64,000 nucleotides of DNA from an uncultured delta proteobacterium (GCA_903920005.1 CAIXKI010000156.1:1029-65028); one strand, 5' to 3'. Shown: positions 7,495 to 52,045, numbered from the stretch's first letter. The notes: generated by a model not told the origin, from the letters alone. Numbers and translations are program-made.

Positions 7495-7541
7495 AAGGAA
7501 TCTACGTGTGTCGGAGATACACGTGGATTCATCTGGTGAAA

Positions 7542-28336: not shown

Positions 28337-28737
28337 CGGCCCCTCCCACTGGTACACCCTATTTTTCAAAAGCAGGTGAAGTGGTTGATATCGTCGGCTG
28401 GCTATACCTATTTCTGATTTGCGTTGCGGCTCTGAAGAGCTCGGGCGATCTCGACCAAGTAGCGTGTGCCAGCGGGAGAGCGGCAATCGGTGAATTTCAA
28501 GGAAGAGACTTATAATAACGGGGTCTTGAGAAGCGAAGGCCTTCAAGACTCAAGCGGAACGCCTCAGACCGCAGACTGGGAATTAAAATTATACGCCTCG
28601 TACAGAAGTGGGTGTTCCTCTTCTCTCGATAAAAGCGAGCTATCCGCTCGACGAAAGCTGTTCCACTTTTCATCGTGAGACCATGAAAGTGTTGGCGTAA
28701 GACTTTGAAGTATCTAACGCCATTTATACGGTGACTC

Positions 28738-36005: not shown

Positions 36006-36557
36006 AGTGTATTAGGTCCTCCATTAGACAAAGGTAAATAGTAACGTACAAATGAACGAGAAAATGTGCACACGGTCGTGCGGACTTTAATAATTAATTC
36101 AATCTGATTTGGGCGCAGAAGATGCCCTGAGGGTGCTGGAAGTATCGAGGTGTGATTGACGTTTGGGACCGTGGGGCCTCCTTACACGATTTATAGCTTT
36201 AGTATATCAGGCCATTATCCTAATCACCAAGTACTATTTTTCTGGCCCGATTCAAGAGTTCTAATGTTATGGGTTGGTTAGCGTGGGAGTCGCTCGGTTG
36301 GGCGTCGCGACAGGTGCTCGTTATTCGGGCATTCCGGTCACGGGTGGGAAGCTCATTGGCGAGCCCCCCAGAGCGCGATGACCTGATTCAGGTTCTCTGT
36401 TTGCTGGATCAGGGGGTGCAAAAGGTTTCTGCCCTCTATAGCGCAAGACTTGGACCTTCTTTGATGTGTTAGAAGACGAGAAGATAAAGCAGTTGGAGCT
36501 GTCCGCCCCCTAAAGCGGTCGATACCTTTGCCCGTGTATATGGTGACATTGAAAAAG

Positions 36558-36633
36558 TGGAGCCGCCCATGGGAGTCGAACCCACGACCCCATCATTACG
36601 AATGATGTGCTCTACCAACTGAGCTAGGGCGGC
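36558..36633 (-). tRNA. tRNA-Thr (anticodon CGU), CCA encoded
   Basis: The reverse complement is GCCGCCCTAGCTCAGTTGGTAGAGCACATCATTCGTAATGATGGGGTCGTGGGTTCGACTCCCATGGGCGGCTCCA. It has a 7-bp acceptor stem, D arm GCTC/GAGC, anticodon stem CATCA/TGATG with loop TTCGTAA, and a GTTCGA T-loop. Confidence 0.92.
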
Positions 36634-36745
36634 GTCGTTTGCGGACCGATCTTTTATATAGACGCTTGGACGGCATCGATCGATCCGCGAAAAGTGACCA
36701 TCGCTGGTCACTGTGCCGATTGTATACCTAGTATTAAACACGTTT

Positions 36746-37819
36746 TCAATTGGCCGTTTGACCCTTCGGATGGGGCACTACGCCCAAAATGAGCGAGTAC
36801 ATACGGCACATGACGAAGATAACGATGTATGGCCCGGTTATTTCGGGAACAATGTCTCCGTCGAGGAAGCACCGTATCGCGCAGGTTGCTAAGCACGCTG
36901 AGGCAATGATCTGAGAACAGGCCAGCTTCCTAAGGGGTAGCAGGTTATCTGCAAGTCGATGCGAGGAGGGGATTGATATCGCGAAGCTAAAAATCTGAGG
37001 AACTAGTGTTGGGTCGCTGTCCATACCCCGACCCTTCAACACGAAGTGAGAGCCCTTGAAAAGGTGACGTATCTTTAGGATGAGTCGATACTCAAATGGC
37101 AGGGTCTCAAGGAACGTAGGGTAAAGGTTTATTCGGATTTTATATCGTCCGATATCGCCGGTTACACGAATCTCGGAGATGTGTGCGAGGGAGACGCTTC
37201 CGAATTCGATAATATGCAGAGAGTTTTGAGACACCACGAGAATGGGGCGATGGAGGAAGAATAAGGCGCTGTTTCGAAGTATTTCAGAGGCGCCTCGGCT
37301 GGCGAGCAAAATTGCGATGATGAGATGAATGGGCGGTGTGGCCTCTATGTACGAGTAGATGAGGTACGAAAGAGCGATCGCGAGACATCCCTTCAGCGTG
37401 CGTAGGACCGCAAATGCGCCGGTTTGAAAAAAGCTCTTTTGAAAGGTGACGTTCTCGGCCGTAAACGGGTGTGTGAAATGAGCGCGGGAGCCCTCCTCCT
37501 CATAATCGTCTTCGTCCCAATCGTCGCGATAATCTTGATAGCTGTTTGGTTGTGACGACGGACGAGAGTTCCCGGAGGAGCGCTCTAAAGCTTCCAGAGA
37601 GGAGCCTGCCGGAATGTTTTTAAAGATTTTCCGCAGATGACTTACCGCCTCGTTGATCTTACGGGTACTCTCCTCTGCCTTTTGTTTGAGATTTTGATCG
37701 GACTGAAAGCGATCCGGGTGCCAGACCCTTACCAGGTCCTTATAGGCCTGGTTAGCGTCCTCAAGGGTCGCTCTGGGGGAGAGCCCTAAAACTCGTAAGC
37801 TTTCAGCGGTCGTTGTCAT
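36746..37819 (-). CDS. J-domain (DnaJ-like) membrane protein
   Basis: N-terminal J domain with HPD (AYKDLVRVWHPDRF), an acidic linker (DDWDEDDYEEE), then TM helices and a C-terminal domain of unknown function. Confidence 0.75.
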   Translation of the reverse strand: MTTTAESLRVLGLSPRATLEDANQAYKDLVRVWHPDRFQSDQNLKQKAEESTRKINEAVSHLRKIFKNIPAGSSLEALERSSGNSRPSSQPNSYQDYRDDWDEDDYEEEGSRAHFTHPFTAENVTFQKSFFQTGAFAVLRTLKGCLAIALSYLIYSYIEATPPIHLIIAILLASRGASEILRNSALFFLHRPILVVSQNSLHIIEFGSVSLAHISEIRVTGDIGRYKIRINLYPTFLETLPFEYRLILKIRHLFKGSHFVLKGRGMDSDPTLVPQIFSFAISIPSSHRLADNLLPLRKLACSQIIASACLATCAIRCFLDGDIVPEITGPYIVIFVMCRMYSLILGVVPHPKGQTAN

Positions 37820-37995
37820 GCTACTCTGGTATTGCCCAGTATTTGTGCGGCGTTACCTCAAATAGCTTCGTTTTACCGAGGGGTGTGAAACCACACAGGT
37901 TTGTTTACTTTGTTCTACCATTTAGTGCTCTCTGGTGTGTTTACACCTCACGTGGTACCATGATGTTACATTAAAGCGATACGTAAGGGCATTTT

Positions 37996-38880
37996 GTGGG
38001 AAATGAAATACTTTCTAAGTTGAGACATTCCTATGCGGATGCTGTCTTAAGCGGTAGTTCTGAGGAAGCTTCTCGCATAATCGACCAAGGGCTCGCAGGC
38101 GGTGTCATTCCATCGAAGATCTATCTTGAGGTGTTGATGCCCGTGCAGATAGAGCTTGGGGCTAAATGGCATCGGGGCGAGATATCAATTCCGCAGGAGC
38201 ACATCGCGACGCAAATTACGCTTCGTCAGATGGCACGGCTCAAATCACTCTTAAAGACTCGGCTTCGTTTGGGTCTTAAGGCGGTCGTAAGTTCAGTCGA
38301 GGGAGACCAACACTTCATCGGCGCGCAGGCCGTTGCTGATTTTCTTTCCGTTGATGGATGGGAGGTCGATTTCCTCGGCGCGGATGTTCCAACCGACCAC
38401 CTGGTGCCATACACGAAGGCGCGTCAATCGCACCTTGTGTGTGTATCGGTGTCGCTCACCTCTCTTATTCCCGTAGCCGAGAAGTTGATTCAGGAGCTCA
38501 AGAAGATCGATCCAGCCCCAAAGATACTGATTGGTGGAGCCGCGTTTGTGTTGAATCCAGCTCTTGCTGAAAAGGTGGGAGCAGATGCTTATACACCAGA
38601 TCCGCAGCAGGCCGTTGTCACCGCTCGGCAGGTATGTGGCCTTATGAATGCTGAAAATCAGCTCGGTGTTTTTCTTCGTAAGCTCGGACACTCAGTTCAC
38701 GAATATCGAAAGATTCGGGGGTTTAGTCAGCAGGAGCTCGCGACTACCTCAGACCTTGATCGCGCCTACATCAGCGCGGTGGAACACGGTAAGCAAAACA
38801 TCAGCATCGGCGCTATTTCAAAACTCGCGAAGGCGCTCCACGTCTCGATCGAAGAGCTGTTGATAGGGGCGGAGTATTAG
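37996..38880 (+). CDS. cobalamin-binding (CarH-like light-sensor module) protein with a C-terminal XRE-family HTH
   Basis: ELGAKWHRGEISIPQEH gives W-x9-EH in the helical B12-binding_2 region. VEGDQHFIG gives the DxHxxG lower-ligand motif. The C-terminal IRGFSQQELATTSDLDRAYISAVEHGKQNISIGAISKLAKAL is a Cro/C1 HTH. GTG start with AAGGG upstream. Confidence 0.8.
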   Translation: MGNEILSKLRHSYADAVLSGSSEEASRIIDQGLAGGVIPSKIYLEVLMPVQIELGAKWHRGEISIPQEHIATQITLRQMARLKSLLKTRLRLGLKAVVSSVEGDQHFIGAQAVADFLSVDGWEVDFLGADVPTDHLVPYTKARQSHLVCVSVSLTSLIPVAEKLIQELKKIDPAPKILIGGAAFVLNPALAEKVGADAYTPDPQQAVVTARQVCGLMNAENQLGVFLRKLGHSVHEYRKIRGFSQQELATTSDLDRAYISAVEHGKQNISIGAISKLAKALHVSIEELLIGAEY

Positions 38881-38882
38881 CA

Positions 38883-39182
38883 ATGGTTTCGATTCAACGC
38901 TTTATCACACTCGGTCGCTGGGAAGGAACTTCTCTCCTTTTGCTGATGGGCGTGGCCATGCCGCTCAAGTATATGTTTGATTACCCAGCGGCTGTGCGCG
39001 TTGTTGGTATGGTGCACGGTATACTGTTTCTTGCCTATTGCGCGGCGGCTTTACTTGTCGCTCGTAAAGAACAGTGGGGAATATCGAAGCTTGCGCGCTG
39101 TTTAATAGCGTCGTGTCTTCCCTTCGGCACGTTTGTCTTTGAGCGCGAGTTGCGAGCTCAATCTCACATCACTCCTCGGTAG
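38883..39182 (+). CDS. DUF3817-family small membrane protein
   Basis: 99 aa. LGRWEGTSLLLLMGVAMPLKYMF...GMVHGILFLAY...SCLPFGTF fits the DUF3817 pattern. It starts 2 nt after the upstream stop codon. Confidence 0.65.
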   Translation: MVSIQRFITLGRWEGTSLLLLMGVAMPLKYMFDYPAAVRVVGMVHGILFLAYCAAALLVARKEQWGISKLARCLIASCLPFGTFVFERELRAQSHITPR

Positions 39183-39204
39183 ATGGGCCTTTTGAGAAGC
39201 GTGG

Positions 39205-40179
39205 CTAGGGCTTCGTTCCAACCACGGCAGCCGTATGAGGCGCCGGGTGGCCCTCGACCGTCTTGCTCGGATCGCTGGGATCCAGAAAGTCCGCGAGGCT
39301 CTCATACGGGGAGAGTGGCGTTCGTCGCTGCTCTGTAGTGCTTAAGGGGCCGAATGTATGAAGCCTAACGTCCTTGAAGCCGACCTGGTGGAATAGGTCC
39401 TCCATGGATGAGGGGCTCGGTATCGTCCAAGCGTTACGCATCTTTGCGTACCTATCCGGGGCGATGATTTTTAGTGGCTCTGGTTGATTGACCACAAGGC
39501 TCTCAAGGACCACCGTGCCTCCTGGACGCACAGAGTCATAGAGCTGCTTCACCGCGGCGAGGTGGTCGCGTTGGTGATACAGCACTCCCATGCAGAGCAC
39601 TAGATCGAAGAACTGCGGGAAGGCGGTAAGCGACAAGAGCCCCATGGGCAGGAACGCGGTATTTCGAATTCCCAACAGCTTGTGAAGGAACGCGAACTGT
39701 AACCAGCAACGCTCAATTGGATCAAATCCAACCGCGATTTCAGGTTCGAGTTTTGACAGTTTGAAGAGGAAGTAGCCGTTACTACAGCCGACATCCGCGA
39801 TGCGCATACCCTCGCGTTTTGGGAGAAGCGCAGAGATGCGCGACCATTTCATGAAGGATTGCCACTCGGAATCGATGCAGTACGAACCGATCTGATAAGG
39901 TCCTGTGCGCCACGGAAGCAGCGCGCTACAGAGCTGGTCTACATGAGAAAGACCGCATGCTGGGACCGTAATGACATCTCCGGCAGTATCCGCCGGGCCT
40001 TGTGGTATATAGAAGCCAATTGAGCGTTGAAGCTCTTTTCGGATCTCATTCCAATGGCGCGAGCCTCGGAGTAAGCGCCACGCTCTCTTTGTTTCTTGAA
40101 TGACGCTTGCGAGATCGCATTCCCCCTTATACGGATGGAGAGGGTCTATCGTTGACAGAAGTAGAGAAGAGTTCGCCAC
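39205..40179 (-). CDS. cmoB: tRNA U34 carboxymethyltransferase
   Basis: Collinear with E. coli CmoB by eye: LLPWRTGPY, IDSEWQS..KW, IADVGCSNGY, MGVLYHQRD, PDRYAKMRNAWTIPS, TTEQRRT...ESLADFLDPSDPSKTVEGHPAP. GTG start. Confidence 0.92.
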   Translation of the reverse strand: MANSSLLLSTIDPLHPYKGECDLASVIQETKRAWRLLRGSRHWNEIRKELQRSIGFYIPQGPADTAGDVITVPACGLSHVDQLCSALLPWRTGPYQIGSYCIDSEWQSFMKWSRISALLPKREGMRIADVGCSNGYFLFKLSKLEPEIAVGFDPIERCWLQFAFLHKLLGIRNTAFLPMGLLSLTAFPQFFDLVLCMGVLYHQRDHLAAVKQLYDSVRPGGTVVLESLVVNQPEPLKIIAPDRYAKMRNAWTIPSPSSMEDLFHQVGFKDVRLHTFGPLSTTEQRRTPLSPYESLADFLDPSDPSKTVEGHPAPHTAAVVGTKP

Positions 40180-40356
40180 ACAGATCAGGTACCACGGAGC
40201 CCGGGTCTAATCTAGTGCGTGCTTGATTCTTATCCTTTGGCTCGTAAGATATATCTATTTGAGTGATCGCATCGGAATATTCACCGAGACAACAGTGCGA
40301 GTAACTGTTTAAGTTGGACCATTTCCTATTCCTGAGGAGTTAGGACCCGATGAAGG
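40082..40356. repeat. direct repeat copy A (cmoB 5' end + intergenic region + pseudo-apaG 5' end)
   Basis: It aligns base-for-base with 42674..42947 (offset about 2592). The first 29 nt are identical and overall identity is roughly three-quarters by eye. Confidence 0.85.
40259..40356 (+). pseudogene. apaG 5' fragment (pseudo-copy)
   Basis: It translates to LSDRIGIFTETTVRVTV*VGPFPIPEELGPDEG, compared with the intact ApaG MSDRMGTFTETTASVTVSVEPFPILEESRPDEG. There is an in-frame stop and homology ends at 40356. Confidence 0.75.
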
Positions 40357-40413
40357 TATGTGCCAGTGGATGAATCAGGTTGATAATCATGGTGAGAGCC
40401 GTCAACGGCATCT

Positions 40414-42054
40414 CTAAGCCCTCTCTCGCTTCTCCGGTTGTTGTATGCGCTTGTCGGGCAATACCGGCGAGACAATTGCGTTGAGCCAAAACTCCCCGCG
40501 GCGACCCAGTGGATGAATGGCTACTTGAGATTGAATATCGAAGCGCATGTACGAAGGGGTTGTACAAGTGTACGGGGGCCACTCAGAGGTGGCGTTTGTG
40601 TTTGGGTTGCCCGTATGCGCAAACGCAATCAAGACATCTTGCATAAGGTGAGAGAGTCTTTCTCGCTCTTGGATAACGCTCTCGGATTGAGGTGCTCCGA
40701 TGAGCGCCTTGCCGCCTGGCGAGTTCCATGTCCCGAGGAAAAAGGTAACGTCGGATGCGTGCAACGCTCCCCGTCGAGGGTCATTGCAGGGGTAATCAAA
40801 TCGGTACATCCAGCATCGATCGTTGCTCTTCGAAACTCGGTCAGCGAAGATAAGGCTCGGCGCGCCGAACATAGCGTCGCTCAAAAGATGCATTCCCTGA
40901 ACCCCCGCAGGTTCGTGTCCAAGTTCCTCTTGATAGAGCTTTGCAATCTCCCTCTGAAGGTGCTTAGGGATGAAAGGGCATGTGGTCGCCGCCCACTCGG
41001 AGGAGTGGCGGTCCAGCTCTTCATCCCACGTCAGCCACAGTCCGAGCTCGTACTGGGTGAATCCGATGAGGATATCAAATCCATCGGCGGCGCCTTTCGT
41101 TGCGGCAATAAAGGGATCCTGTGTGGTAAATGAGGGGTCTATGCGCGGATAGAAGAGTGTATCCATATCGAAAAGGATGTCACTGTTCTGCACCTTCTTT
41201 GCGCATCGTGTCATTATCTGCTGAGTGGAGAGTGCCTTGAGTTCGCTAAATGTTGAGATTCCTATCTCCTTAAGAAAAGCTCGGGCGCGGGCCTGCCCCT
41301 CTTCGAGTGAGTGCGCGGATCGCTCATGATCGTCACCAAAGCCCGTAACGGAGGCAACGCCGCTCATCATGACGAGGCGCTTAACGCGACCTTTCAGCGC
41401 ACCGGAAGCTACCATCCAACTGATGTCCATACTTCCAGCCGATTCGCCGACTAGGGTAATATTTTCCGGATCGCCCCCGAAAAACGCGATGTTCTGCCTG
41501 ACCCAATCAATTGCGCAGAGCTGATCGCGCACGCAATGTGCGTGAGCCCCTTTTGGGGCATCCTCCCCCAATACGGATAGATCGAGAGCGCCGAAAATTC
41601 CCAAACGATAATTGAATGAAACGGCGACCACATCACCGCGCTGGACCAGAGAATCCATGTGATAGAGGCTTACGCGACTCGACTCAAGCCAATTGGCCCC
41701 GCCATGAATGTACACGACGACAGGGCGTCGTTTCTCGTCAGCGGCGGGGGTGATTACGTTAAGGGTAAGGGAGTCTTCTTCCCCGACAAATAGTGGGTCG
41801 ACCTCTGGCACTATATCCTGAAACTCAAGCACCTTTGATTCTTTTGGATCGAACACTTGAGCCGACGCTGCGCTAAAGGAGAATGCAACGATTGTTTCAG
41901 TCCACGGGGCTTTGGGGATGGGAGGTTGAAAGCGACGCTCTCCAATCGGTGGCTCGGCGTAGGGAATTCCTAAAAATCTGAAAACGTCTCCGTGAACGGA
42001 TTTGACGCCCTTAATCGGACCGCAATGTGGGTTTACTATCAGTTCTTGTACCAT
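40414..42054 (-). CDS. type B carboxylesterase/lipase (para-nitrobenzyl esterase-like)
   Basis: 546 aa. FLGIPYAEPP, VYIHGGANW, nucleophile elbow GESAGS, and the overall length fit the COesterase family. Confidence 0.9.
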   Translation of the reverse strand: MVQELIVNPHCGPIKGVKSVHGDVFRFLGIPYAEPPIGERRFQPPIPKAPWTETIVAFSFSAASAQVFDPKESKVLEFQDIVPEVDPLFVGEEDSLTLNVITPAADEKRRPVVVYIHGGANWLESSRVSLYHMDSLVQRGDVVAVSFNYRLGIFGALDLSVLGEDAPKGAHAHCVRDQLCAIDWVRQNIAFFGGDPENITLVGESAGSMDISWMVASGALKGRVKRLVMMSGVASVTGFGDDHERSAHSLEEGQARARAFLKEIGISTFSELKALSTQQIMTRCAKKVQNSDILFDMDTLFYPRIDPSFTTQDPFIAATKGAADGFDILIGFTQYELGLWLTWDEELDRHSSEWAATTCPFIPKHLQREIAKLYQEELGHEPAGVQGMHLLSDAMFGAPSLIFADRVSKSNDRCWMYRFDYPCNDPRRGALHASDVTFFLGTWNSPGGKALIGAPQSESVIQERERLSHLMQDVLIAFAHTGNPNTNATSEWPPYTCTTPSYMRFDIQSQVAIHPLGRRGEFWLNAIVSPVLPDKRIQQPEKRERA

Positions 42055-42258
42055 CTAGTTTCCCGCTTCAAGTCGAGGCCTGCCTATCTTAACTCTCTCG
42101 CGACGGCGTGCAGAATCACTCTGTCATCTCGGGAAGAGTTAGGCAAAGTTTTCGCTTTATGGCGGCGGAACAAAGCTTGTATTCAAGTTCTGCCTGCCTT
42201 AGCATCTTCCTCGCCGACGTGGAGGAAGGTTATAGAGGGTTTTGCTTAGAAAGGCAGA

Positions 42259-42453
42259 ATGATGAATAACGCACGTACAGTTGTTGTGGGGCAGTTTTGC
42301 CTCCTGCTTCTTTTAACGGGCTCTTTCTTGGCGGTTGTGGCGTACCTTGGTCGTCCTTCCCTGTGGTCTAAAATGAGACAAGAAGCGCCGCAGAACTACC
42401 AGCAACGCATGCAGCTTCAGGCGATATATCTTCGAACCCTTAGCCGTATGTGA
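42259..42453 (+). CDS. possible small membrane protein (weak call)
   Basis: 64-aa ORF with one hydrophobic helix (VVVGQFCLLLLLTGSFLAVVAYL). No recognisable family. Confidence 0.25.
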   Translation: MMNNARTVVVGQFCLLLLLTGSFLAVVAYLGRPSLWSKMRQEAPQNYQQRMQLQAIYLRTLSRM

Positions 42454-42673
42454 TGGAGGTGCCGACTCTCAAGGACTCTATCGGTTTTTGAGGCCCCGTC
42501 GGCATTTTACTATCTTCAGAAAACTAGTAAAGAATTCACTTTCGCAGGCCGTTGGGCAAAACATCGTACTCCTGGTACAAAAGTGATCGGAAGCCGCGTG
42601 CGCTCCAAGTAGTACGGGGATTAGATATGGGCAGTTGGCGACTCCTTGCAGGTGAACTCAGCGCAAGGGCAAA

Positions 42674-42768
42674 GCTCTCTTTGTTTCTTGAATGACGCTT
42701 GCTAGATCGCACTCCCCCTGTAAGGATTGAGGGGCTGTATCGTTGACAAGAGAAGTGGGGGGGGCATC
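42674..42768 (-). pseudogene. cmoB 5' fragment (pseudo-copy)
   Basis: The minus-strand translation MPPPLLLSTIQPLNPYRGECDLASVIQETKRA compares with the intact CmoB MANSSLLLSTIDPLHPYKGECDLASVIQETKRA. It then reads LPLR-stop. Confidence 0.75.
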
Positions 42769-42947
42769 ACCCCGATTTGGGACCACGGAGCCCCGGCCTA
42801 ATCCAGTGCGTGACGAATTCTAATCAGTTGGCTTACAGGAAATCTCTACATGAGCGATCGTATGGGTACATTCACCGAAACAACAGCCAGCGTGACCGTT
42901 TCCGTTGAGCCATTTCCTATCCTTGAGGAATCACGACCCGATGAAGG
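42674..42947. repeat. direct repeat copy B (pseudo-cmoB 5' end + intergenic region + intact apaG 5' end)
   Basis: Partner of 40082..40356, in the same orientation. The two copies bracket the esterase gene. Confidence 0.85.
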
Positions 42948-43251
42948 GGTGTTCGTATTCGCCTATTCAGTGCGGATCGAGAACAATTCAAGCGAAACCA
43001 TTCAATTGGTAGAGCGACATTGGCTTATTGAATCAGCGGGTGAACAGACCGGGGAGGTTTCAGGTCCCGGAGTTGTGGGCTTGCAACCAACACTCTCTCC
43101 CGGAGAGCATTTTGAGTACACCAGCAGCACCGTTATTAAGGATCCGGTTGGTTCGATGCGAGGGTCCTACATCTTTAAACGCAAGAGTGGAGGGTTTTTC
43201 ACGGCCCAGATACCTCGCTTTAAGCTCCTCTATCCATCCTGTTTAAACTAA
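42850..43251 (+). CDS. apaG: ApaG (DUF525) protein
   Basis: 133 aa. FVFAYSVRIENNSSETIQLVERHWLI..G....V.G.GVVGLQP.L.PGE.FEYTS matches E. coli ApaG. Confidence 0.9.
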   Translation: MSDRMGTFTETTASVTVSVEPFPILEESRPDEGVFVFAYSVRIENNSSETIQLVERHWLIESAGEQTGEVSGPGVVGLQPTLSPGEHFEYTSSTVIKDPVGSMRGSYIFKRKSGGFFTAQIPRFKLLYPSCLN

Positions 43252-43440
43252 TGAGGCCCTAAACGACCAAAGTATCGTCGAAGAGCAGCCGAAGCATAAA
43301 GCCTTCCCTACAAAGATCGGATCTTTAAAGCGCGGGGGAGGGTCTAGCCCTCCATAATGAGTATACGAGTTTTGCGTAGTACGCTCCGGCTGTCCCATCC
43401 TCGCAGTGGTCACGCCGTTCACGTGACGTAGAGAAGGCAT

Positions 43441-43608
43441 GATTGGCTTGAAGGAGATGAGCTGAAGGGGCTCGCCCTATGGTTTTATTTCAATGGGGAC
43501 GGCATCTCCGATACTGAAGAGGTGAAGAAGCTGTCTGATGTCGGAGTGCTGGTCATCGGGACCAAGAGCTCCCACGAAGATCCAAAAAACCAGGAATATC
43601 TTCGCTGA
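43441..43608 (+). pseudogene. fragment of a paralog of the 48110..50860 C-terminal calcium-binding-like region
   Basis: DWLEGDELKGLALWFYFNGDGISDTEEVKKLSDVGVLVIG aligns with SGEELEPLALWFDRGADAVVGVGEVRRLSEVGVTRLFL. A stop codon lies immediately upstream and the open stretch is only about 55 codons. Confidence 0.45.
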
Positions 43609-44281
43609 TAAGGGCTACAAATGAAAGGTCGGCGATAGGGTGATCGAGAGCAGCTCTCAGATCTCTGCGCGCTGTTTCAACGATTCCTAGATCGCCTTCA
43701 TAAGAAAGTGATTATTATAATGACTACAACCTGGGTGGCTCACTGTGCGCCAATACTAGTGTAGGATTCGGATGTGCCCCACCTTCTTCAATAAGCGGTA
43801 TGCAGGGCCGGGCTGGAAAGAAAAAAGCACGCACGTACGCCCTGCAAACAATATCAGCCGCGACGCCGGGGGGCGTATATTCACCAACTCAATCGAATGC
43901 TTAACCATAATAATCTTACTATGACTGAGGTGTCGGGAACTCCGGATACCAATCTGAAAGATTTTTTACAAAGTCTCCTCAAGAATAACGGGATACCCCT
44001 CGAGGTCTCTCACGAGGCGCCGGCGCTTTTGATGAAGAGGAAAGATAAGGATACCGAAGGAGTCAGTCAGTTGGGCTGAGTCCTTGGAGACCTGGTCATA
44101 GATCGGGTTGAAAAAGCAACGTCGGGGGTAATCTCACCCCAGGGTTTGGTATTTAGGCTGACACCCACCGGATACTCGATCTCTAAAGATAGTAACTCGC
44201 GGAAATCTACGTGCTCATTCTAGGTTACGGCGCTTTTGAGGTAACGGAGTGGGGGTGAAGGAGAGGATGGTGGGACTTAAG

Positions 44282-44325
44282 AATCAAAAGAAGCCGCGAG
44301 AGAGACGAGGGCTCTCTCTCGCGGC
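44282..44325 (-). terminator. Rho-independent terminator of the 106-aa gene
   Basis: GCCGCGAGAGAG-(7-nt loop)-CTCTCTCGCGGC is a 12-bp perfect stem, followed on the minus strand by TTCTTTTGATTCTT. It lies 18 nt after the stop at 44343. Confidence 0.7.
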
Positions 44326-44342
44326 AGTCTTGGCGGCAACCT

Positions 44343-44663
44343 CTAAGTTTTTTTCTTTCGGATCTGATTGAAGGTGGCAATGAGCGCCATTTTCAAATTC
44401 AGGCTCACATGTTTGCTTTCGGGTTGAGTAAAATCGACAGGCAGACTTGCCTCTCGCCTGAACTCGACCCATTTCTTCAGGAGCGTGTCGAAGCTCCCCT
44501 TACTGGACTTAACAAAGCGCGCAAAGGCGTCTATGAGGTCCTGGTTTGACACATCTAGCCTGACGAAGTTCCCGCTTTCGACGGCGTCCTTCCTCGTTGA
44601 TGAGTCGTCTTCAACCGCCTCAATGTAGATCTCAGGAATCTCCCGTACCATGGAGAACTCCAT
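44343..44663 (-). CDS. hypothetical protein (ORFan)
   Basis: 106-aa ORF followed by its own strong terminator. I recognise no family. Confidence 0.55.
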   Translation of the reverse strand: MEFSMVREIPEIYIEAVEDDSSTRKDAVESGNFVRLDVSNQDLIDAFARFVKSSKGSFDTLLKKWVEFRREASLPVDFTQPESKHVSLNLKMALIATFNQIRKKKT

Positions 44664-45149
44664 TTCATGAAAAACCTTACACTCTTGGTGAAAAACCGTT
44701 TCCCACCATCCAGCTCTTCATCGAGGGTATGCGCCGGAGAACTAACAAGCTCTCTCTACGCGGTGAAGAGATGGATGGTGTTTTCAGAGCGGTGCTTTAC
44801 TTCCTTTTTTTGTTGTAGGCGCAAAGTAACGACACTGAAGAGCGCGACTACTCTTATGGTGCAGATAAAAGAACAACTGCGGGACGGAGAGAAACTACTA
44901 CATAATCGGTGTCGATGGAATAAATTCAGAGTTAGGCACGGCCTCTCTCGAGCCTCTTCCCACCTACTTAGCTGATCGGCGCTCCTCATTGAATGGAGTC
45001 CAGCACGTCCCTAGAGCGTGCTCGAGTCACCTCGGAAGGAGGCGCGTTGACCGCCGTCATCCAGACAAGAGAATGCAGATGGTTAATTGGACGGGGCTTT
45101 CGGAAGCACAATGGTTTCGTGTTCGAAGCTACAACTTTGTAAGCGCCTT

Positions 45150-46706
45150 CTATTTTGGTACGTGTGGATTAGAACTCCTTTCGATACGGAATAGTCCAAA
45201 AGGGCCTAGGTAGTTGGGCATCGTTAGCATAAGGTCCCGTGCAGCAGTTCTGACCTCTGGATCAGGATGTGGGCTGACGCTCCAGGGAAGGCAGAAAACC
45301 CCAAATGGCCCGAAACTAATAGCAGGAACACCCAACAGGCGCATGATACTAGGGATGGCCATCTTCGCGGCGGCGGGGCTCTCGAGCAGAAGCTCTAAGG
45401 TGTTGCGAGCGAGCGAGCTTCTCTTGGGGTTTTTATGTTCGGTATGCAGAAGTCTTTCAGCGAGTCGTCCTATATTTTCTAGCTGACGGGTAGCTTTTCG
45501 ATCGCCCTTGCGCACTCGTTTAAACACCTCCTCCTTAAGTGCTAATAGATTTTCACCTGATGATAAAGCATGCCCGAGAACGTGTTCACACACATCGAGT
45601 AACTCGACATCGTTTGGGCTCGGAGAAGCGCAAAGGTTCCAGAGTAGGGTAATATCTGATTCCCATGGTTGCTGAAGGATCTCTCTCGCTGCAAATGCTA
45701 GCTCTTTGCACTCTGTGGGATCCCGTGTGTCAAGCGCTCCGATAACCGCTCTTTGGAGGGATGAAATACACCACTGAAGAAAGTCGCTTTCAAGGTAGAC
45801 GAAATATTCCGGTATCAGCTCGTAAAGCTGGCATAATCGCGTGTGGTCCCCCGGCTCCGGGAGAGCGATCGAAAGTTTTCGAATCGTCTGCCTGATAAAC
45901 CCGAATTCCGCTATCGGGTGGCTACGGAGGATCTGTCGCGCGTCGCAAGAGCCAGTATCGAAAGTATCCGCGACCGCGTGACCGAGCAGGAAAAAGTTGA
46001 ACAAGTCATCTTTACAGTCGATATCCGCGCACAATCTCAAGCTCTCAACGGCCTTATGCACCATAGGGGCTGGCACATGTCCCTGGTTGACTACTCTCAT
46101 TATGAGATTGGTATCCGGGAGAATTTGTCTGACGTAGAGTGTGGTTAAGACCTCGAGGAGGTTTCCGGCGGTCTGTGCCTGAGTAATATGTGTCGAGCCT
46201 ATCAGTTCAAGGAAGAAAGGCAGATGCGTGTGCAAAAGTGTGGTTCGCAGCGAGGCCTGCACCTCTTCCAGGAATAGCGGCGCGTTTTGGCTGAATAATT
46301 CGTTACGAAGCGTTAGCATGCCTTTTGGAAATTCCGTCTTTCGACAAAAGGTATGAAAGTCAGCCAACGTTCGAGGGGAGTCAAGGAACGAGAATAGGGA
46401 CTCCTGATATCTTTGAAACTCGTGATATGTTTCGAATCCTCTCTTCTCAACATCACGGACGATGTCTCTATATTCGCCTAAGATATGGAGGAGCGACTGA
46501 CGCTCCACATCGTCCCCTTTGCGCTCGCACGGTCCGTGTAATTGCTGTAAACGCTCCAGGGCAGTTTGAACCCTGGACGGTACAAACCTAGCTTTGCCGG
46601 TTGCCTGAAAGCTCAACTCATCGACAAGTTTCACCAAAGGAGTTGGCGGAACGATGCTCGAAGGGCGTCTATGTGGGTGATGTTCCATCATGGGAGCCGA
46701 AACCAC
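45150..46706 (-). CDS. hypothetical all-alpha protein (ORFan, 518 aa)
   Basis: A long uninterrupted ORF with a helical-repeat-like composition and a HEAT-like tail (PDPEVRTAARDLM). It is divergent from 46885..47739. Confidence 0.65.
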   Translation of the reverse strand: MVSAPMMEHHPHRRPSSIVPPTPLVKLVDELSFQATGKARFVPSRVQTALERLQQLHGPCERKGDDVERQSLLHILGEYRDIVRDVEKRGFETYHEFQRYQESLFSFLDSPRTLADFHTFCRKTEFPKGMLTLRNELFSQNAPLFLEEVQASLRTTLLHTHLPFFLELIGSTHITQAQTAGNLLEVLTTLYVRQILPDTNLIMRVVNQGHVPAPMVHKAVESLRLCADIDCKDDLFNFFLLGHAVADTFDTGSCDARQILRSHPIAEFGFIRQTIRKLSIALPEPGDHTRLCQLYELIPEYFVYLESDFLQWCISSLQRAVIGALDTRDPTECKELAFAAREILQQPWESDITLLWNLCASPSPNDVELLDVCEHVLGHALSSGENLLALKEEVFKRVRKGDRKATRQLENIGRLAERLLHTEHKNPKRSSLARNTLELLLESPAAAKMAIPSIMRLLGVPAISFGPFGVFCLPWSVSPHPDPEVRTAARDLMLTMPNYLGPFGLFRIERSSNPHVPK

Positions 46707-46884
46707 CTACTACCGGATAATCTAGCGAAGCTGTGCCCTCGTGGCGGGCCTTATGGCCCGCCGAAACGCACCGCCTCGCCTTGCGACGCATGGTAGCAAA
46801 AACGTAAACGTCTTGGGCAATTACTCTAGTTGTGGCGTAGAGTATTCCACCTATAGTAGAATACAGAGGTTGTAAGACTGTGAG

Positions 46885-47739
46885 ATGCCAATGCTAATAC
46901 CATCCACCGAGCCTTCCCTTGAGCAGATCGTCTTGAGGCTGCTTGCGCGAAAACCACATCTGAGTGCGGAGCGAATTCGAGTTCTCGCGTCGCAGGGGAG
47001 GAGCTCCTACAGTCCCGCTGCGGTATACAAGGTTTTGAGCCGGCTCCTCTCAAGTGGCGTTGCTGTAAGGTCGGGATCCCAATACAGCCTTAGCCTGGCA
47101 TGGGTATTTGAGCTTCTCACCTTTGCTGGCGATATCTCAAAAACCTACTTCTCCGACGAGTATGTAGGAACGCTTCTCCCGGCGATTGATAAAAAGATGA
47201 CATGGAAGTTTGCAAATTTGGCACGGTGTAACGAATTTTGGAATCAACTTCTGCTGGCGCTTCTCAAGGGAACTCGGGCTGAAAATATCTTTTCATGGGT
47301 TCCGTATCCTTGGTTCGCTCTTTTGCAAGACGGCGCAGAGTCGAGGTTACACCAGGCATTTAAGATGAGCGGGCGGACCTTCTACACGAGCTTTGGGCCG
47401 AGCGGAGCTCTCGAACCGGTAGTCAAAAAACTCTACAGCCACAAAAACCAGATAATATCCTTCGCAAAAGGGCCGCTCCATGAGCTGAAGAATTCATATA
47501 TCGACGTCGTAGGCGACTATGTTCTTACAGTGACTCTTGCTCCGGACTCCGCCCGAAGTATAAATGGACTCTTTTCAGAGCTCCGTACCCGACACGCGGT
47601 CAATCTTGGCAAACATCTGGCTGTGTTATCTGAGCGGTGCAAGGTTACGGTAACAATTGAATGCAACCAGAAGAAAGCTGCGAAGTTAAGACAGCCGCTG
47701 CAAGTATTTTTCGGCTTAGACCAGGGCGACGAGGAATAA
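46885..47739 (+). CDS. hypothetical protein with a probable N-terminal winged-helix DNA-binding domain
   Basis: SLEQIVLRLLARKPHLSAERIRVLASQGRSSYSPAAVYKVLSRLLSSGVAVRSGSQYSLS has a MarR/PadR-like wHTH pattern. The remaining ~200 aa are unassigned. Confidence 0.6.
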   Translation: MPMLIPSTEPSLEQIVLRLLARKPHLSAERIRVLASQGRSSYSPAAVYKVLSRLLSSGVAVRSGSQYSLSLAWVFELLTFAGDISKTYFSDEYVGTLLPAIDKKMTWKFANLARCNEFWNQLLLALLKGTRAENIFSWVPYPWFALLQDGAESRLHQAFKMSGRTFYTSFGPSGALEPVVKKLYSHKNQIISFAKGPLHELKNSYIDVVGDYVLTVTLAPDSARSINGLFSELRTRHAVNLGKHLAVLSERCKVTVTIECNQKKAAKLRQPLQVFFGLDQGDEE

Positions 47740-48109
47740 GCTCTGTTTGCGCGGTGGCAGACTCCGTTGACGACTGCTCGTAGCAGACGATTGGGTCTAG
47801 GGAGTTTGGTGGCCTCCGGGCGAGGCTTTTAAACCACGGCACCGTTCCCAGCGGCTAGACTAGGACGGTGCAAGCACTGACAGATCCTTCCAGGGATGAA
47901 AGGAGCACAAGCTCCGCCCCTAGCAGTATGCTTTGAGAATTAGGGCAAAAAGGTCTGAGGCCTATCTGTAATCAATAGGTTGTACAGGGCCGTGGGCTGA
48001 ACGCGTCGGATTTAGGTCGTTCAGACGAAAAAAGCCGAGCTGATATATTAACTCTTTCGATACTTCTGTCGTCTACCCGAAGAGCAGGTGCTGAGTAAGG
48101 AGCGATCCG

Positions 48110-50860
48110 TTGGGAAACGTCAAAAAGTCGAGCGGAAATCGGATCTCTCAGAGACGCGGGCGCACAATCGCCTCTAGCGCCAGCCTGTCGATCTTTTATC
48201 TCCTCCGCCTATTCATAGTCGCCTTTTTGTTAGGGTCACATGACCTCCTTGCTCAATCCGGCGGACCGGGAATTCAGCTTAGCAGTCCAGAGAGTAGTCA
48301 CGGCGGTGCTCCCCTATGCGATGGGATGCCCGTCGGCTACCAAACAAACCCGCTACCGGCAGCTGGTGTCTGCCTAGACTCTATTAAAGAGTGCGTTCTT
48401 AAAGGCGGGCAAGCCTCTTGGCAGACAAAAACCTTCTTCACGGGATTCTCCCGCTCCTGCGTTCCGTCAGCTCAAGTTGACGCCTGCCAGCCATACACAT
48501 GTGTCGCTGGCGCTGGAAGCTGTTCTCCCAGTGGCACCCCAGTAAAATGTGATCCCTCCGCCGACGGTTGCACGGCCTATGCCTGCGACCCGCAGAAGCC
48601 GGGAACTTGCATAATCACCGAGAAAAAAGATCCGAACCAATGCGTGGTCACTTGGCAGGATCAAGAGACGCCGTGTGGTGGCGCTACTATCTACCACAAG
48701 GTAGTCACCATTTCAGATCCGTGTTGTAAATATAAGGTTGGATATACCGAGCCGACATCACGAGTCTCTCCGGCTTGTAATCCTACGCCTCAGTGTACTG
48801 ATGGTGTGTTCGAGGTTGAATTTACGGGGAGCGTAAACAATGGAATCGTACCCGTCGGCGAGGCGTGGGCGATGAAGACCTCGACGGCTAAGGGTAAGGT
48901 AACTCTTGCGCATCAAGCTGGTAAGCGCGTTGTCGTCGCTGGTGCTGCGACGCTTGAAGGAAAAGCTACTGGGTCTTTGGGGGGCTGGGGGTATCTCGCC
49001 AAACTAGTCGTGTCATGGAGTGGCACCGATAGCCCCTCCGCAACGGTTCAGCTGCGCCGTGATGGGGGAATCTATAGCGACGGCGAAGTGCAGTATGTTT
49101 CCATAGCGACACGCGAGGACTCCGCAGGTACCAGTATCGTAACGATCTCGGGCGAAGCGAGAGTGCGGAGCACTACGGGCTGGCACGCTTGGAGCAACTT
49201 CTCAGTCACCGCTCAGGTTGAGTGTCGTCCATGTGAACTCTTCGTTGGGGAAGTAAAGGCAGAGGAGATTGCGAAAGATACCGGAGATTTTGGCAAATAC
49301 TCTTTCGACCGAGTATTTCCCCCGGTTCAGGATGGGGCTCCAAGCTGCCTGGCGCAGTGGCGCGAGAAGATCTCGAAAATGAGCATCAATACGGCCAAGG
49401 ACCCGACATTCTGGACCGATCAGAAACATTATAGAGACGACTACTGGGCGCTCTGGTTCATAGATGACATGGCAAAGGTTCGTAACGGCGTGTTTTACAA
49501 TCCAGCAAAGGATTTCTCGCCTGTGTGTAGCGTCCCGTGCACCAAAGCTAATACCCCTATGACCCCAAAGTGCTGGTGTAATAAAGAAGCCGAGGTATGG
49601 GCTTATGGAAAGGATTGGAAGGATGTGCCGGCCAAAATCGAGTGCGTCAAACGTGCTCCGGTTGGTGTGCCTGGCTACGTCCATTGGGAGGGGGCATGCA
49701 TAGACACTAAGATATATTTAGACTCTTCGTGCAATGTAGTGCCAGCGACTGACCTTGCAGGAAAGAAGGTCTGCGGGGGCGCGAAGATCACCTTCTATCC
49801 CTCCTCTCCAATATCACTACTATGGAACACTTCGAAGCCCATTACGGCGCATGGATCAGTTGTCAATTTTCCGCTGGATAAGAGTCGGCCCGATAGCTGG
49901 TACGTTTGGTACGGCTCAGAGGAGACCCCGCTGCTAGTATACGATCCAGGCCATAGAGGAACGGTCTCGTCGGTCGAGCAGCTTTTCGGCAACTGGACCT
50001 TCGGCGGACAGCGCAGCGCTGCTCTATCCCTTGACGCATCGACGGCCCCAAGGCCGTGGCGCGATGGATACGCTGCTCTTGAGACCCTTGATCATAACGG
50101 AGATGGCGAGATCTCTGGCGAAGAGCTTGAGCCGCTCGCCCTTTGGTTCGACCGGGGAGCCGATGCGGTGGTGGGAGTAGGGGAGGTGCGTCGGCTGAGT
50201 GAAGTGGGGGTCACGCGCCTATTCCTGAGCCCACGTTCGCAAGATGAGATGAGCAGAAATGTGCACGTCAAGCGAGGTTATACGGCGATCTCGAACGGAA
50301 TAGAGCACGTTGGAGAAACCGTGGACTGGTATAGCCAGGGAGCCCGCACACAGGCGCAGCTGATTGCGCTGCAGCAGTTTGGTGGTGCGCTTAGCGTCAA
50401 TCGGGGGGAGAGTTCCGAGGCGAAAAGAGCCGGCATTTCATCGCCCTCACCGGCGCCCGTTGGTATAGCCGCTTCTATCTTGCATGATCCTCGCATCAAC
50501 GGCGCGTGGTACTGGAAAGCAAAAGAGGATCAAGGCAGCTCTCCTCGCGGAATGCTCCTCATAACTGCGCGTCAGGATAGCTCGATCTCGGGGATCTCCG
50601 TAACCGAGATTCCAATTCGTGACCCGGCAGGTAAGGTAAGTGTGATCGAGATGATGAAACCGTTCGCCGGAACGATAATCTCTAAAACAGAGGAGCATTA
50701 CCGCATAACCTTTCAGACGCTAGGGGGAGACCCTCAAGACGAGAGCGCCTCAATCTCGGAGGCGGAGGTGGATCTACAACGAGGCATCCTCTCCGGAAAG
50801 ACTACTGAGCCTATAGGAGAAGACAAGAGGCTCACCTATCGATGGGCAGCTACACGATGA
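48110..50860 (+). CDS. large secreted protein (916 aa): Cys-rich N-terminal region, EF-hand-like DxNxDG calcium motif near the C-terminus
   Basis: TTG start with AAGGAG 8 nt upstream. It has a signal-like helix (IFYLLRLFIVAFLLGSHDLLAQS), about 25 Cys in residues 70-230, and LDHNGDGEISGEELEPLALWFDRGAD. Confidence 0.75.
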   Translation: MGNVKKSSGNRISQRRGRTIASSASLSIFYLLRLFIVAFLLGSHDLLAQSGGPGIQLSSPESSHGGAPLCDGMPVGYQTNPLPAAGVCLDSIKECVLKGGQASWQTKTFFTGFSRSCVPSAQVDACQPYTCVAGAGSCSPSGTPVKCDPSADGCTAYACDPQKPGTCIITEKKDPNQCVVTWQDQETPCGGATIYHKVVTISDPCCKYKVGYTEPTSRVSPACNPTPQCTDGVFEVEFTGSVNNGIVPVGEAWAMKTSTAKGKVTLAHQAGKRVVVAGAATLEGKATGSLGGWGYLAKLVVSWSGTDSPSATVQLRRDGGIYSDGEVQYVSIATREDSAGTSIVTISGEARVRSTTGWHAWSNFSVTAQVECRPCELFVGEVKAEEIAKDTGDFGKYSFDRVFPPVQDGAPSCLAQWREKISKMSINTAKDPTFWTDQKHYRDDYWALWFIDDMAKVRNGVFYNPAKDFSPVCSVPCTKANTPMTPKCWCNKEAEVWAYGKDWKDVPAKIECVKRAPVGVPGYVHWEGACIDTKIYLDSSCNVVPATDLAGKKVCGGAKITFYPSSPISLLWNTSKPITAHGSVVNFPLDKSRPDSWYVWYGSEETPLLVYDPGHRGTVSSVEQLFGNWTFGGQRSAALSLDASTAPRPWRDGYAALETLDHNGDGEISGEELEPLALWFDRGADAVVGVGEVRRLSEVGVTRLFLSPRSQDEMSRNVHVKRGYTAISNGIEHVGETVDWYSQGARTQAQLIALQQFGGALSVNRGESSEAKRAGISSPSPAPVGIAASILHDPRINGAWYWKAKEDQGSSPRGMLLITARQDSSISGISVTEIPIRDPAGKVSVIEMMKPFAGTIISKTEEHYRITFQTLGGDPQDESASISEAEVDLQRGILSGKTTEPIGEDKRLTYRWAATR

Positions 50861-51083
50861 CTCACGGATCCGTTCGGTAGCTTCGCGACATTGGCACTCG
50901 TAGTGTTGCGGGGCTTTCCCCGTTCTTCTGGACTGCTCCGGGGGGATACCTCTCGCTGCCGACTACAGTGGGAGAGCTTTATGGGCCGGGGTAAAAAGCA
51001 CAGGTCCGGTATAGGTGGGTTCTCAGTGCGCGAGGTAAGAACCCTAAGAGGAAATGGAAGTGCTACGCGATGCACCTTTATAA

Positions 51084-51626
51084 TCAGGTTGAATTCGGAC
51101 GCCGGTTCCTACCCAAATCGCCCGAAGGTGATGAGGTAGGCGCTATCGGAGTCGTACTCACCTGTTGCACCTCAACCCACTGTGTTACCTGTACCCACGT
51201 TGTGGTGGGAACAGTTTCAGTTCGGGTGCAGAGCCAAGTTACAAACAGCCCTTGATGAGGCCGTGTAACATTGGCGAGACCCGTGCTGGGTTGATGGATA
51301 CCCTGCGGAGCGAATCGGTAGACTCGCCCGCCGTGACGGACAAAAAGTTGTCCGCCACTGATCATCGTCTCTGTAGGAACGCCGAGTTCCCAAGAAACTA
51401 GCCGGTGTTCGATCAGCTGCCCGCCCTGGTCTACCCAGACCGTCTTGGGGCCCTGCCCCAGATTAACGACGGTCCACTGACCCTTAGGGGCCTCAAAGCT
51501 TACACCGGCAAACCCGACAGCCTCCATCCGCAGAGGCGGAAAAGCGGGTTGCTCCTGCCCTGGAGCAATTCCCGCCAAGAGGACTGTCATCAGCATCCCT
51601 GCAGCAACGTGTGCTGCAGTGTTCAT
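51084..51626 (-). CDS. secreted hypothetical protein
   Basis: 180-aa ORF with a signal peptide (AAGMLMTVLLAGIAPGQE). No recognisable family. Confidence 0.5.
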   Translation of the reverse strand: MNTAAHVAAGMLMTVLLAGIAPGQEQPAFPPLRMEAVGFAGVSFEAPKGQWTVVNLGQGPKTVWVDQGGQLIEHRLVSWELGVPTETMISGGQLFVRHGGRVYRFAPQGIHQPSTGLANVTRPHQGLFVTWLCTRTETVPTTTWVQVTQWVEVQQVSTTPIAPTSSPSGDLGRNRRPNST

Positions 51627-52006
51627 CGCGATATCTCCTGTGTAACAAAAACCGAAACAACCTCAGTGCGCACTGAGATTCCCAGATGTGCTTGAAGACC
51701 TATACCTGGCCTCTGCAGGCTTGTCATATGCTAGCCGCTGTTCTGGCTAGAAGAAGACTGTTAGGCACTGGAGGTCTCTGCTGTAAAAATAAGAGACGAG
51801 AGTCTCTCCCGCTCTGCGACGTCGCCTATCTATTTAGTTATAAAAGGCTTTAACGAGGAGTTGTGATGAGGTCCACGGCTTCAGGGTATAGTATTCTACT
51901 TAAAGTGGACTGTAGCCATTTGGAGGGATAGGAGCAGCGGAAAAGGCGTCGGTAGGTCGATGTTTTTCGGTCAAGGTAAACTCGGGGAAAGCGCCTGCTG
52001 CCGATG

Positions 52007-52045
52007 AAAAAAATCCCCGCCACGGCTCTCACCGGGGCGGGGATT
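52007..52045 (-). terminator. Rho-independent terminator of ahcY
   Basis: On the minus strand AATCCCCGCC-(14-nt loop)-GGCGGGGATT is followed by TTTTTTTCATC. It lies about 35 nt after the ahcY stop. Confidence 0.85.

Follow-up and report, generated by a model that had tools for sequence, protein, structure and literature searches.

Integrative and conjugative elements (ICEs) of the SXT/R391 type in the 5' end of prfC, and phage 21 and e14 in icd, swap one end of a gene for a diverged, functional version carried by the incoming DNA, which in the case of prfC includes a promoter. The displaced native end stays on the far side of the insert as a pseudo-fragment, and the reaction uses an integrase and a fixed attachment (att) core. 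Campbell integration, known from the lambda model and from suicide-plasmid integrants, leaves an insert bracketed by direct repeats, each of them a hybrid of resident and incoming sequence. Double homologous recombination in flanking core genes was proposed in 2017 for hotspots that lack mobile genetic elements (MGEs) (PMC5635113), and homology-facilitated illegitimate recombination (HFIR), which makes one homologous and one illegitimate joint and usually leaves no long direct repeat, has been described in E. coli (PMC3240628) and earlier in naturally competent species. Here we describe a locus that can be compared with each of these systems, in a 64,000-nucleotide (nt) stretch of DNA (CAIXKI010000156.1:1029-65028, hereafter the window) that is contig C156 of G000, a 257-contig metagenome-assembled genome (MAG) from an uncultured Bdellovibrionota genus. 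In this stretch a carboxylesterase gene lies between the divergent genes cmoB and apaG, and is bracketed by two diverged direct repeats, each of them a copy of the cmoB-apaG junction. We consider it likely that the esterase gene and its two flanking arms form a module that was made once and has since entered other species by double homologous recombination.

Unlike the SXT/R391 and phage 21/e14 integrations, the locus has no recombinase gene, its crossover points vary, and two genes are restored, the junction being divergent. It resembles a Campbell integrant in the hybrid repeats that bracket the insert, and would differ in that both arms, together with adjacent chromosome, came in from a linear donor fragment that already had two arms. 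With the MGE-free hotspots (PMC5635113) it shares an accessory gene between core genes, the lack of a recombinase, presence and absence within a species, breakpoints in the flanks and transfer between close relatives. The difference is that the present insert lies inside a divergent 5'/promoter junction of ~290 base pairs (bp), which the module carries in duplicate; unlike in the hotspot model, the homology arms move in part along with the cargo, and neither flanking gene loses any of its 5' end. The likeness to HFIR (PMC3240628) is the entry of foreign DNA by way of a short homologous anchor, which is relevant to the first joining of cargo and junction, whereas here homology is found on both sides.

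An insert between two copies of the cmoB-apaG junction

Global alignment of 40082-40356 (copy A, which may begin at 40065) with 42674-42947 (copy B) gave 211 identical positions out of 274 (77%) and a single gap, and the two copies begin with 29 identical nt. These values agree with a preliminary description of the window, made from the sequence alone, which had placed the repeats at the same coordinates, noted their identical lead and judged the overall identity by eye at about 75%. In a blastn search of the whole 3.3-megabase assembly, the repeat pair was recovered at 76% identity over 292 nt (E=1.5e-53), and no third copy of the repeat was found. The homology possibly extends leftward by 17 nt, to 40065 and 42657, where the match is weak (11/17). 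At the left end of each copy lies a 38-nt stretch that we call the anchor (40082-40119 in copy A, corresponding to cmoB codons 21-33, and 42674-42711 in copy B). The two anchors are 95% identical, and are the last stretch of high identity. Between the repeats is the cargo (40357-42656), made up of a 57-nt 3' flank, the esterase gene and ~600 bp of upstream DNA.

The preliminary description had named the three genes as cmoB, a type-B esterase and apaG, and profile matches confirm these identities. The cmoB gene (tRNA U34 carboxymethyltransferase; 39205-40179, minus strand) encodes an intact protein of 324 amino acids (aa) that matches PF08003 (E=3e-68) and scores above the equivalog cut-off of NF011650 (270.7 versus 209); its TIGR00452 score of 265.8 falls just below the 275 of that model. 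The apaG gene (DUF525; 42850-43251, plus strand) encodes an intact protein of 133 aa (NF003967, 135.3 against a cut-off of 106). Two copies of the ~290-bp junction allow both genes to stay intact despite the insert. Copy A holds the live start of cmoB, a GTG at 40179, and a dead 5' fragment of apaG (40259-40356, plus strand) with a TTG start at 40259 and a TAA at 40310-40312, its codon 18; the position of this stop is common to the window and to a second species carrying the insert, here called species X, which has TAG instead. Copy B holds the live start of apaG and a dead 5' fragment of cmoB (42674-42767, minus strand; ATG at 42767-42765) that covers codons ~1-33. In this fragment a 1-nt deletion in a run of C shifts the frame, and the rest is nearly unchanged relative to the live gene of relatives. 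The reciprocal pseudo-copies of the two gene starts had been recognized before, and so had the dead cmoB fragment, but the peptide then written for it does not stand: MPPPLLLSTIQPLNPYRG and ECDLASVIQETKRA lie in different frames, and writing them together hid the deletion. A promoter and terminator scan gave no signal above shuffled expectation.

To place the insert in an evolutionary setting, we compared the junction among relatives. About 25 congeners have cmoB and apaG side by side in divergent orientation, as a rule with 91-125 bp between them, and the same arrangement is seen in several metagenomic lineages; the empty junction is the ancestral state, as had been supposed. The cargo is absent from these ~25 congeners, from the genome G045 and from the metagenomic lineages L100, species E, L106 and L107. 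The esterase occurs in three of 25 genus genomes, two of which (G010 and G015) carry it at an unrelated locus. Because the divergent junction is general in congeners and the esterase lies elsewhere in G010 and G015, the esterase is correctly read as an insertion, and this comparison with the empty sites of relatives upholds the earlier proposal to that effect. The G010 and G015 loci were considered as donors and rejected: there the esterase stands in a kinase-esterase-AAT/C45-like context that shares no flanks with the window, and the synonymous divergence (dS) is saturated (2.3); for the same reasons these loci tell nothing about the mechanism.

The same arrangement is found in other assemblies. 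The esterase cluster at 90% identity has 11 members, and arm, cargo and arm are colinear in nine further assemblies of the same species (98.5-99.3% nucleotide identity over ~10 kilobases (kb); ENA scaffolds and Logan contigs). By tblastn, cmoB is intact in all alleles, shorter calls of 215-217 aa being start choices of the gene caller. An apparent 221-bp deletion in the cmoB of strain L094 was rejected, the run of N at this place being a scaffold gap. We gave thought to a mis-assembly in which an empty site and a separate 2.6-kb circle, or a co-assembled strain, were wrongly joined through the 29-nt word that both repeats share. The MAG to which the window belongs has 257 contigs, a de Bruijn graph through the anchor allows an alternative resolution, the L094 scaffold gap lies at the anchor, and the L084 contig stops ~200 bp before copy B. 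However, the nine further assemblies were made by different assemblers and are colinear across both anchors, and the same structure recurs in a second species in two more sequencing runs. Given the arm-cargo-arm order in nine further assemblies, the structure is not an assembly artefact, and the chance of such a mis-join is negligible.

Native and foreign parts of the repeats

Empty-site contigs, that of L100 among them, were obtained by an exact look-up of the ApaG protein of the window, which is identical in L100 and species E. L100 is a sister lineage of the window, 95.9% identical over 36257-40356, and species E is a further empty-site lineage at 85-89% identity. G045 is ~78-85% identical to the window at the nucleotide level, with a dS of ~1. 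The empty junctions of G045, L100 and species E are all of one type, which we call native. When the empty site of the window is reconstructed from the cmoB body and copy B and then compared with G045, it forms a smooth conserved island (identity 0.87-0.97), against only 0.55-0.67 in the neutral DNA downstream of apaG.

Right of the anchor, copy B is 0.95, 0.92, 0.92 and 0.97 identical to L100 by segment, and copy B together with apaG reaches 0.95-0.98 in most 60-nt windows across 42674-43153. Copy A is 0.96 identical to L100 up to the anchor and 0.66-0.77 beyond it. This right-hand part of copy A (40120-40356), which comprises cmoB codons 1-20, the intergenic region with the putative cmoB promoter and the dead apaG start, has an identity of 0.66-0.77 with each of the native junctions and of 0.81-0.87 with the left arm of species X (A_X). 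With A_X excepted, the anchor itself is 0.92-0.97 identical in all copies. To the right of the anchor, copy B is the native junction and copy A is foreign, the first 20 codons of the live cmoB included; we call this foreign sequence D-type, its putative source being a lineage D. The two repeats are only 77% identical because copy B is native and the right part of copy A is foreign. As judged from the sequence comparisons, this value appears to be mostly the distance between lineage D and the native type, and the repeat of the window would represent a meeting of two lineages' versions of one junction.

We also examined the possibility that copy B and apaG had been imported from a G045-like species, apaG having the lowest dS, and rejected it: the native type is present in all empty sites, and copy B is 0.95-0.98 identical to L100. 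Over the whole native junction (cmoB codons 1-20, spacer and start of apaG), G045 and L100 agree at 0.98-0.99, against just ~0.76-0.78 in the flanking DNA. Two alleles of the junction occur in species E: that of L095 resembles L100 and G045, and L096 and L104 carry a different one. Very strong regulatory constraint or sweeps between species may explain the uniformity of the native junction. On the protein side, CmoB residues 1-78 fall outside the NCBIfam and Pfam CmoB models and are highly variable between species of the genus, and this variable N-terminus probably accounts for the tolerance of the swap of the first 20 codons.

The distribution of changes between live and dead fragments bears on whether the repeats arose in G000 itself. 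Direct repeats around an insert are expected of a target duplication, and the dead apaG is interrupted by a stop codon and lacks some conserved residues; the junction could on this basis have been duplicated when the esterase was inserted, by a staggered break or tandem duplication, with the copies then diverging in place to 77%. However, the dead cmoB of copy B is the nearly unchanged copy: polarised with G045, it has no copy-B-specific substitution in codons 6-20 and one frameshift, and it is 0.95 identical to L100. The live cmoB N-terminus of copy A shows 28% copy-A-specific change; in codons 6-20 there are 10 such changes, of which 6 are synonymous and 4 non-synonymous (ratio of non-synonymous to synonymous rates (omega) ~0.24, p=0.025). 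Further against an event in situ, L100 (96%) is native throughout, the switch of type in copy A is abrupt at the anchor, and copy A clusters with the arms of another species and not with copy B. An origin of the repeats within G000 is highly improbable, and duplication followed by decay in place is excluded for this genome.

The dead apaG of copy A carries 7.5 synonymous and 10.5 non-synonymous copy-A-specific changes (omega ~0.44 versus 0.03 for the live apaG), which points to a mixed history of purifying and neutral evolution. The preliminary description was therefore right to doubt simple decay in place, the dead cmoB being unchanged and the live N-terminus of copy A changed, whereas its argument from conservative substitutions is weak at an omega of ~0.44. 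Its suggestion that the second copy had evolved in another genome before transfer holds for the right ~240 bp of copy A, and fails for the dead cmoB in copy B, which is the resident gene's own 5' end, orphaned only recently.

Origin and transfer of the module

Species X is known from two Logan runs (L092 and L093) that are identical to each other, with an esterase of 88.8% aa identity to that of the window and the same flanking genes. Its flanks are 97.5% and 94.5% identical to G045, with the mismatches mostly inside the junction copies; X and G045 are occupied and empty alleles within one species. In the left arm, A_X, the sequence is that of G045 as far as alignment column ~52 and D-type from there on; its cargo boundary is the one seen in the window. 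The right arm, B_X, is D-type up to column ~245 and then identical to G045 from apaG codon ~9 (codons 1-8 D-like, codons 9-33 G045-identical). The foreign arms of X thus overlap by ~200 bp (columns 52-245), and they differ from each other. The G045 junction is no hybrid of A_X and B_X, and a deletion in X is therefore excluded as the source of G045.

In an arm tree rooted with the empty junction of the outgroup lineage L106 (CmoB 72% identical), the foreign part of copy A of the window, A_X and B_X form one clade with 99% bootstrap support and a long stem. At 15 sites both A copies agree with B_X and are unlike the native type, versus 4 A-only sites. Since the D-type arms are one clade, the duplication arose once, from one lineage's own junction. 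The founding event was therefore not a meeting of two lineages, as the preliminary description would imply, both arms deriving from one sequence.

Strains of the window species differ in how far the foreign DNA reaches on the left. In seven of nine conspecific strains ~53 single-nucleotide polymorphisms are confined to 39876-40096, a patch of cmoB that lies left of the anchor and runs into it, while elsewhere there are mostly 0-4 per 200 nt. The window and L084 have the native (L100-like) haplotype in this patch, and the seven other strains a G045/X/E-like one; in these seven, foreign-type DNA extends ~240 bp past the repeat into the cmoB body, ending in the anchor. The left boundary of the foreign DNA differs among strains. 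The breakpoints found are the anchor (window strain), 39876 (seven strains) and columns ~52 and ~245 (X), a spread of up to ~450 bp. The patch fits a linear chromosomal donor fragment with a later native patch in the window strain, or the reverse order of events.

The age of the module can be gauged from the comparison of G000 with X. Native coding DNA is 0.79-0.81 identical between them, and neutral DNA downstream of apaG 0.59. The corresponding values are 0.85 for the dead apaG arm, 0.81 for the intergenic part of copy A, 0.77-0.83 for the non-coding DNA of the cargo and 0.77-0.89 for the whole cargo. The esterase is 0.89 identical, with a dS of 0.37, and the host genes have a dS of 0.96 (cmoB) and 0.74 (apaG). 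Because the dS of the esterase is 0.37 versus 0.74-0.96 in the host genes, the cargo is younger than the species split. The locus has the features of a hotspot islet: presence and absence between the same core genes (G045 empty and X occupied, with flanks of 94.5-97.5%; L100 empty and G000 occupied, at 96%), varied breakpoints in the flanks, an insert younger than its flanks and no genes for self-mobility.

In the account that we favour, the module consists of left arm, cargo and right arm, each arm being a junction copy. The left arm would give cmoB its first ~20-39 codons and its promoter, and the right arm would give apaG its promoter and start. The junction would have been duplicated a single time, within a relative outside our sample (lineage D), and the copied junction would have been that of lineage D itself. 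Carried in a linear chromosomal fragment, the module would then have reached other species through RecA-type double homologous recombination, the two crossovers lying on either side of the cargo, one within cmoB or the left arm and one within the right arm or apaG. For the window lineage, the right crossover would have fallen at the left end of copy B, leaving copy B native, and the left foreign boundary now lies within the 38-nt anchor, leaving copy A foreign to its right. At least two introgressions with different crossover points would have occurred, one into the G000 lineage and one into strain X of the G045 species. The boundaries pile up at the anchor because it is the last high-identity stretch beside sequence that is ~25-30% diverged. 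We infer, each in its turn, the RecA-mediated double crossover, the route of DNA entry and the nature of the primordial duplication; this last could have been Campbell integration of a circle from the same lineage, a staggered-break insertion or a decayed integrative element.

Campbell integration had also been proposed in the preliminary description for the window itself, and there it predicts the pattern of G000 exactly. A circle with the esterase and one related junction copy, entering the native junction by one crossover within its 38-nt anchor, would leave copy A native to the left and foreign to the right, and copy B foreign at its left end and native to the right. A 29-nt identical anchor is about the minimal length for a RecA crossover, and with just 65% identity to cmoB, the 17 nt that flank the copy-B anchor on its left look as expected if they came in at the end of an element and had been dead for long. 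Non-overlapping reciprocal hybrid repeats around one crossover are indeed seen in G000, whereas in X the foreign parts overlap: its two different D-type arms share ~200 bp, for which one junction copy is insufficient. Because the arms of X overlap and differ, the donor already had two arms, and a one-copy circle cannot yield the X allele. The D-type A and B arms are sisters in the tree, so a two-armed donor predates the transfers; moreover, a circle holding only the junction could not deliver the foreign-type DNA found 240 bp past the repeat in seven of the nine strains, and contig searches found no plasmid or circle with this esterase. The proposal accords with the geometry of G000 and conflicts with the X allele and the strain haplotypes; for the window it is unlikely, and it is kept as a possibility for the primordial event alone.

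A rather improbable variant is that the module is an integrase-free, self-targeting mobile unit. Arm-by-arm recombination would free a ~2.6-kb circle with one hybrid arm, and this circle, or a two-armed linear fragment, would re-enter the empty junctions of relatives via the anchor. If this is true, the unit would carry portable homology and restore both gene starts at each landing, and recurrent gain and loss would account for part of the uniformity of the native junction.

Several points weigh against introgression of a once-formed module by double homologous recombination. The donor is putative: searches of the genus genomes, GTDB genome contigs, JGI metagenome contigs and a collection of 5.8 billion proteins found no genome of lineage D. 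The empty site of L100 could equally be a later loss by anchor-by-anchor recombination, G000, taken by itself, has a geometry that one crossover between a circle and the anchor would explain as well, and the patch at 39876-40096 could be a separate recombination event and not part of the original import. The similarity among native junctions, 0.98-0.99 between G045 and L100, may come partly from later inter-species sweeps and not from vertical descent. In addition, the segments compared are short (45-100 nt) and the codon-class tests are marginal (p 0.02-0.05).

Cargo, surrounding region and biological meaning

The esterase gene (40414-42054, minus strand) encodes a type-B, PnbA-like carboxylesterase of 546 aa with a GESAG nucleophile motif. 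It matches PF00135 over its full length (residues 4-523, E=2e-91, 307.7 bits versus a cut-off of 27), and no NCBIfam model reaches its cut-off. The nearest solved structure is that of B. subtilis PnbA (1QE3; residues 6-508, E=2e-65), with which it shares the full-length family match and the GESAG nucleophile elbow; the relation is remote, a match at family level only. Outside the genus the nearest relatives are only 47-50% identical. The gene is under purifying selection (omega 0.16 versus species X). Just past the stop codon of the esterase, an additional ~385 bp are present in species X (L092, reverse complement, 3944-4329), in which the gene caller puts an open reading frame (ORF) of 80 aa; the window has only 7 bp there.

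Upstream of the esterase, orf64 (42259-42453, plus strand) is 0.89 identical to X at the DNA level with an omega of 0.91, and it has no Pfam match. We rejected it as a real gene on the basis of this omega and the lack of a family match; it is probably not a protein gene, and the stretch is possibly upstream regulatory DNA of the esterase. The ~620 bp of non-coding DNA noted in the preliminary description include a ~90-nt relic of a genus-wide repeat resembling miniature inverted-repeat transposable elements (MITEs). This relic (42563-42656, plus strand) is a degenerate 3' terminus of ~75% identity that ends at the edge of copy B. Members of the family are ~410-440 nt long and non-coding, with terminal inverted repeats of ~35-55 nt; no ORF and no Rfam match was found in the family, full-length copies included. 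G000 has at least 15 copies or fragments (among them 28482-28610 and 7495-7522 in the window, and others on contigs C169, C92, C102, C126 and elsewhere), and dispersed members of the family occur in most congeners, in many cases where a contig ends (loci L064-L077). The GC content of the cargo is 0.51-0.54, versus 0.526 in the window. Because the MITE-like family is genus-wide and the base composition is unremarkable, the cargo is best placed as originating within the genus.

Searches of the cargo region of the window found no integrase, transposase, tRNA, tmRNA or Rfam element, and no tyrosine or serine recombinase was found in the cargo of the window or in any of the 11 occupied alleles; the absence of an integrase or insertion sequence (IS) had been noted before and holds for the cargo. 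Nor does the locus look like an IS or a composite transposon, as there is no transposase, the one degenerate MITE end has no partner, and the flanking repeat is ~290 bp rather than a few bp long. These searches also bear on the idea that the locus is a fossil of a site-specific integrative element, with the anchor as its att core, that brought a replacement cmoB 5' end and promoter and later lost its integrase and most of its length by deletion. The left arm does give cmoB a new N-terminus and a putative promoter, with codons 6-20 under purifying selection (omega 0.24, p=0.025). In the dead copies the anchor stands out as conserved amid decay (in B_X, 40 nt identical to the native type with flanks of 0.65-0.73), and a degenerate mobile-element relic adjoins copy B. 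Set against these likenesses, no integrase or excisionase, whole or as a remnant, was found in the 11 occupied alleles or among the cargo ORFs, the crossover points vary (anchor, column ~52, column ~245, 39876) as in homologous recombination, and the relic is MITE-like and not the end of an integrative element. We regard such a fossil element as very doubtful.

Other insertions are seen at or near the junction within the genus. G005 (L032, 688-1209) and G021 (L033) have a small ORF between cmoB and apaG whose C-terminus is CsrA-like by eye, and in G001 (L029, 189-1532) a gene for a multi-pass membrane protein of 448 aa lies directly upstream of apaG, replacing cmoB. The enlarged junctions of these three genomes hold unrelated small genes, with neither repeats nor a MITE. 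The cmoB-apaG junction may be a recurrent insertion spot. On the right side of apaG, the window has ~8.7 kb of G000 genes (43154-52008) where L100 has an SPM-domain gene and a gene of 228 aa (~2.9 kb). A relic of the L100-type SPM gene, 86% identical, is present at 43439-43647, and synteny between G000 and L100 is back from 52008 (97.3%, AdoHcyase). In G000, apaG is a native island of ~0.5 kb between two variable regions.

For annotation, the locus advises caution: a 77% direct repeat around an insert need not mean decay in place, or a Campbell event, in the genome where it is found. Empty and occupied alleles, differing breakpoints and a young cargo together make the double-recombination model visible at base resolution. 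The locus is a tidy, not a revolutionary, example of the trade in accessory genes without the enzymes of mobile elements. It would offer a natural case of an accessory enzyme gene placed inside a compact divergent promoter region with neither neighbour damaged, and of a package that has spread across species borders by housekeeping recombination alone.

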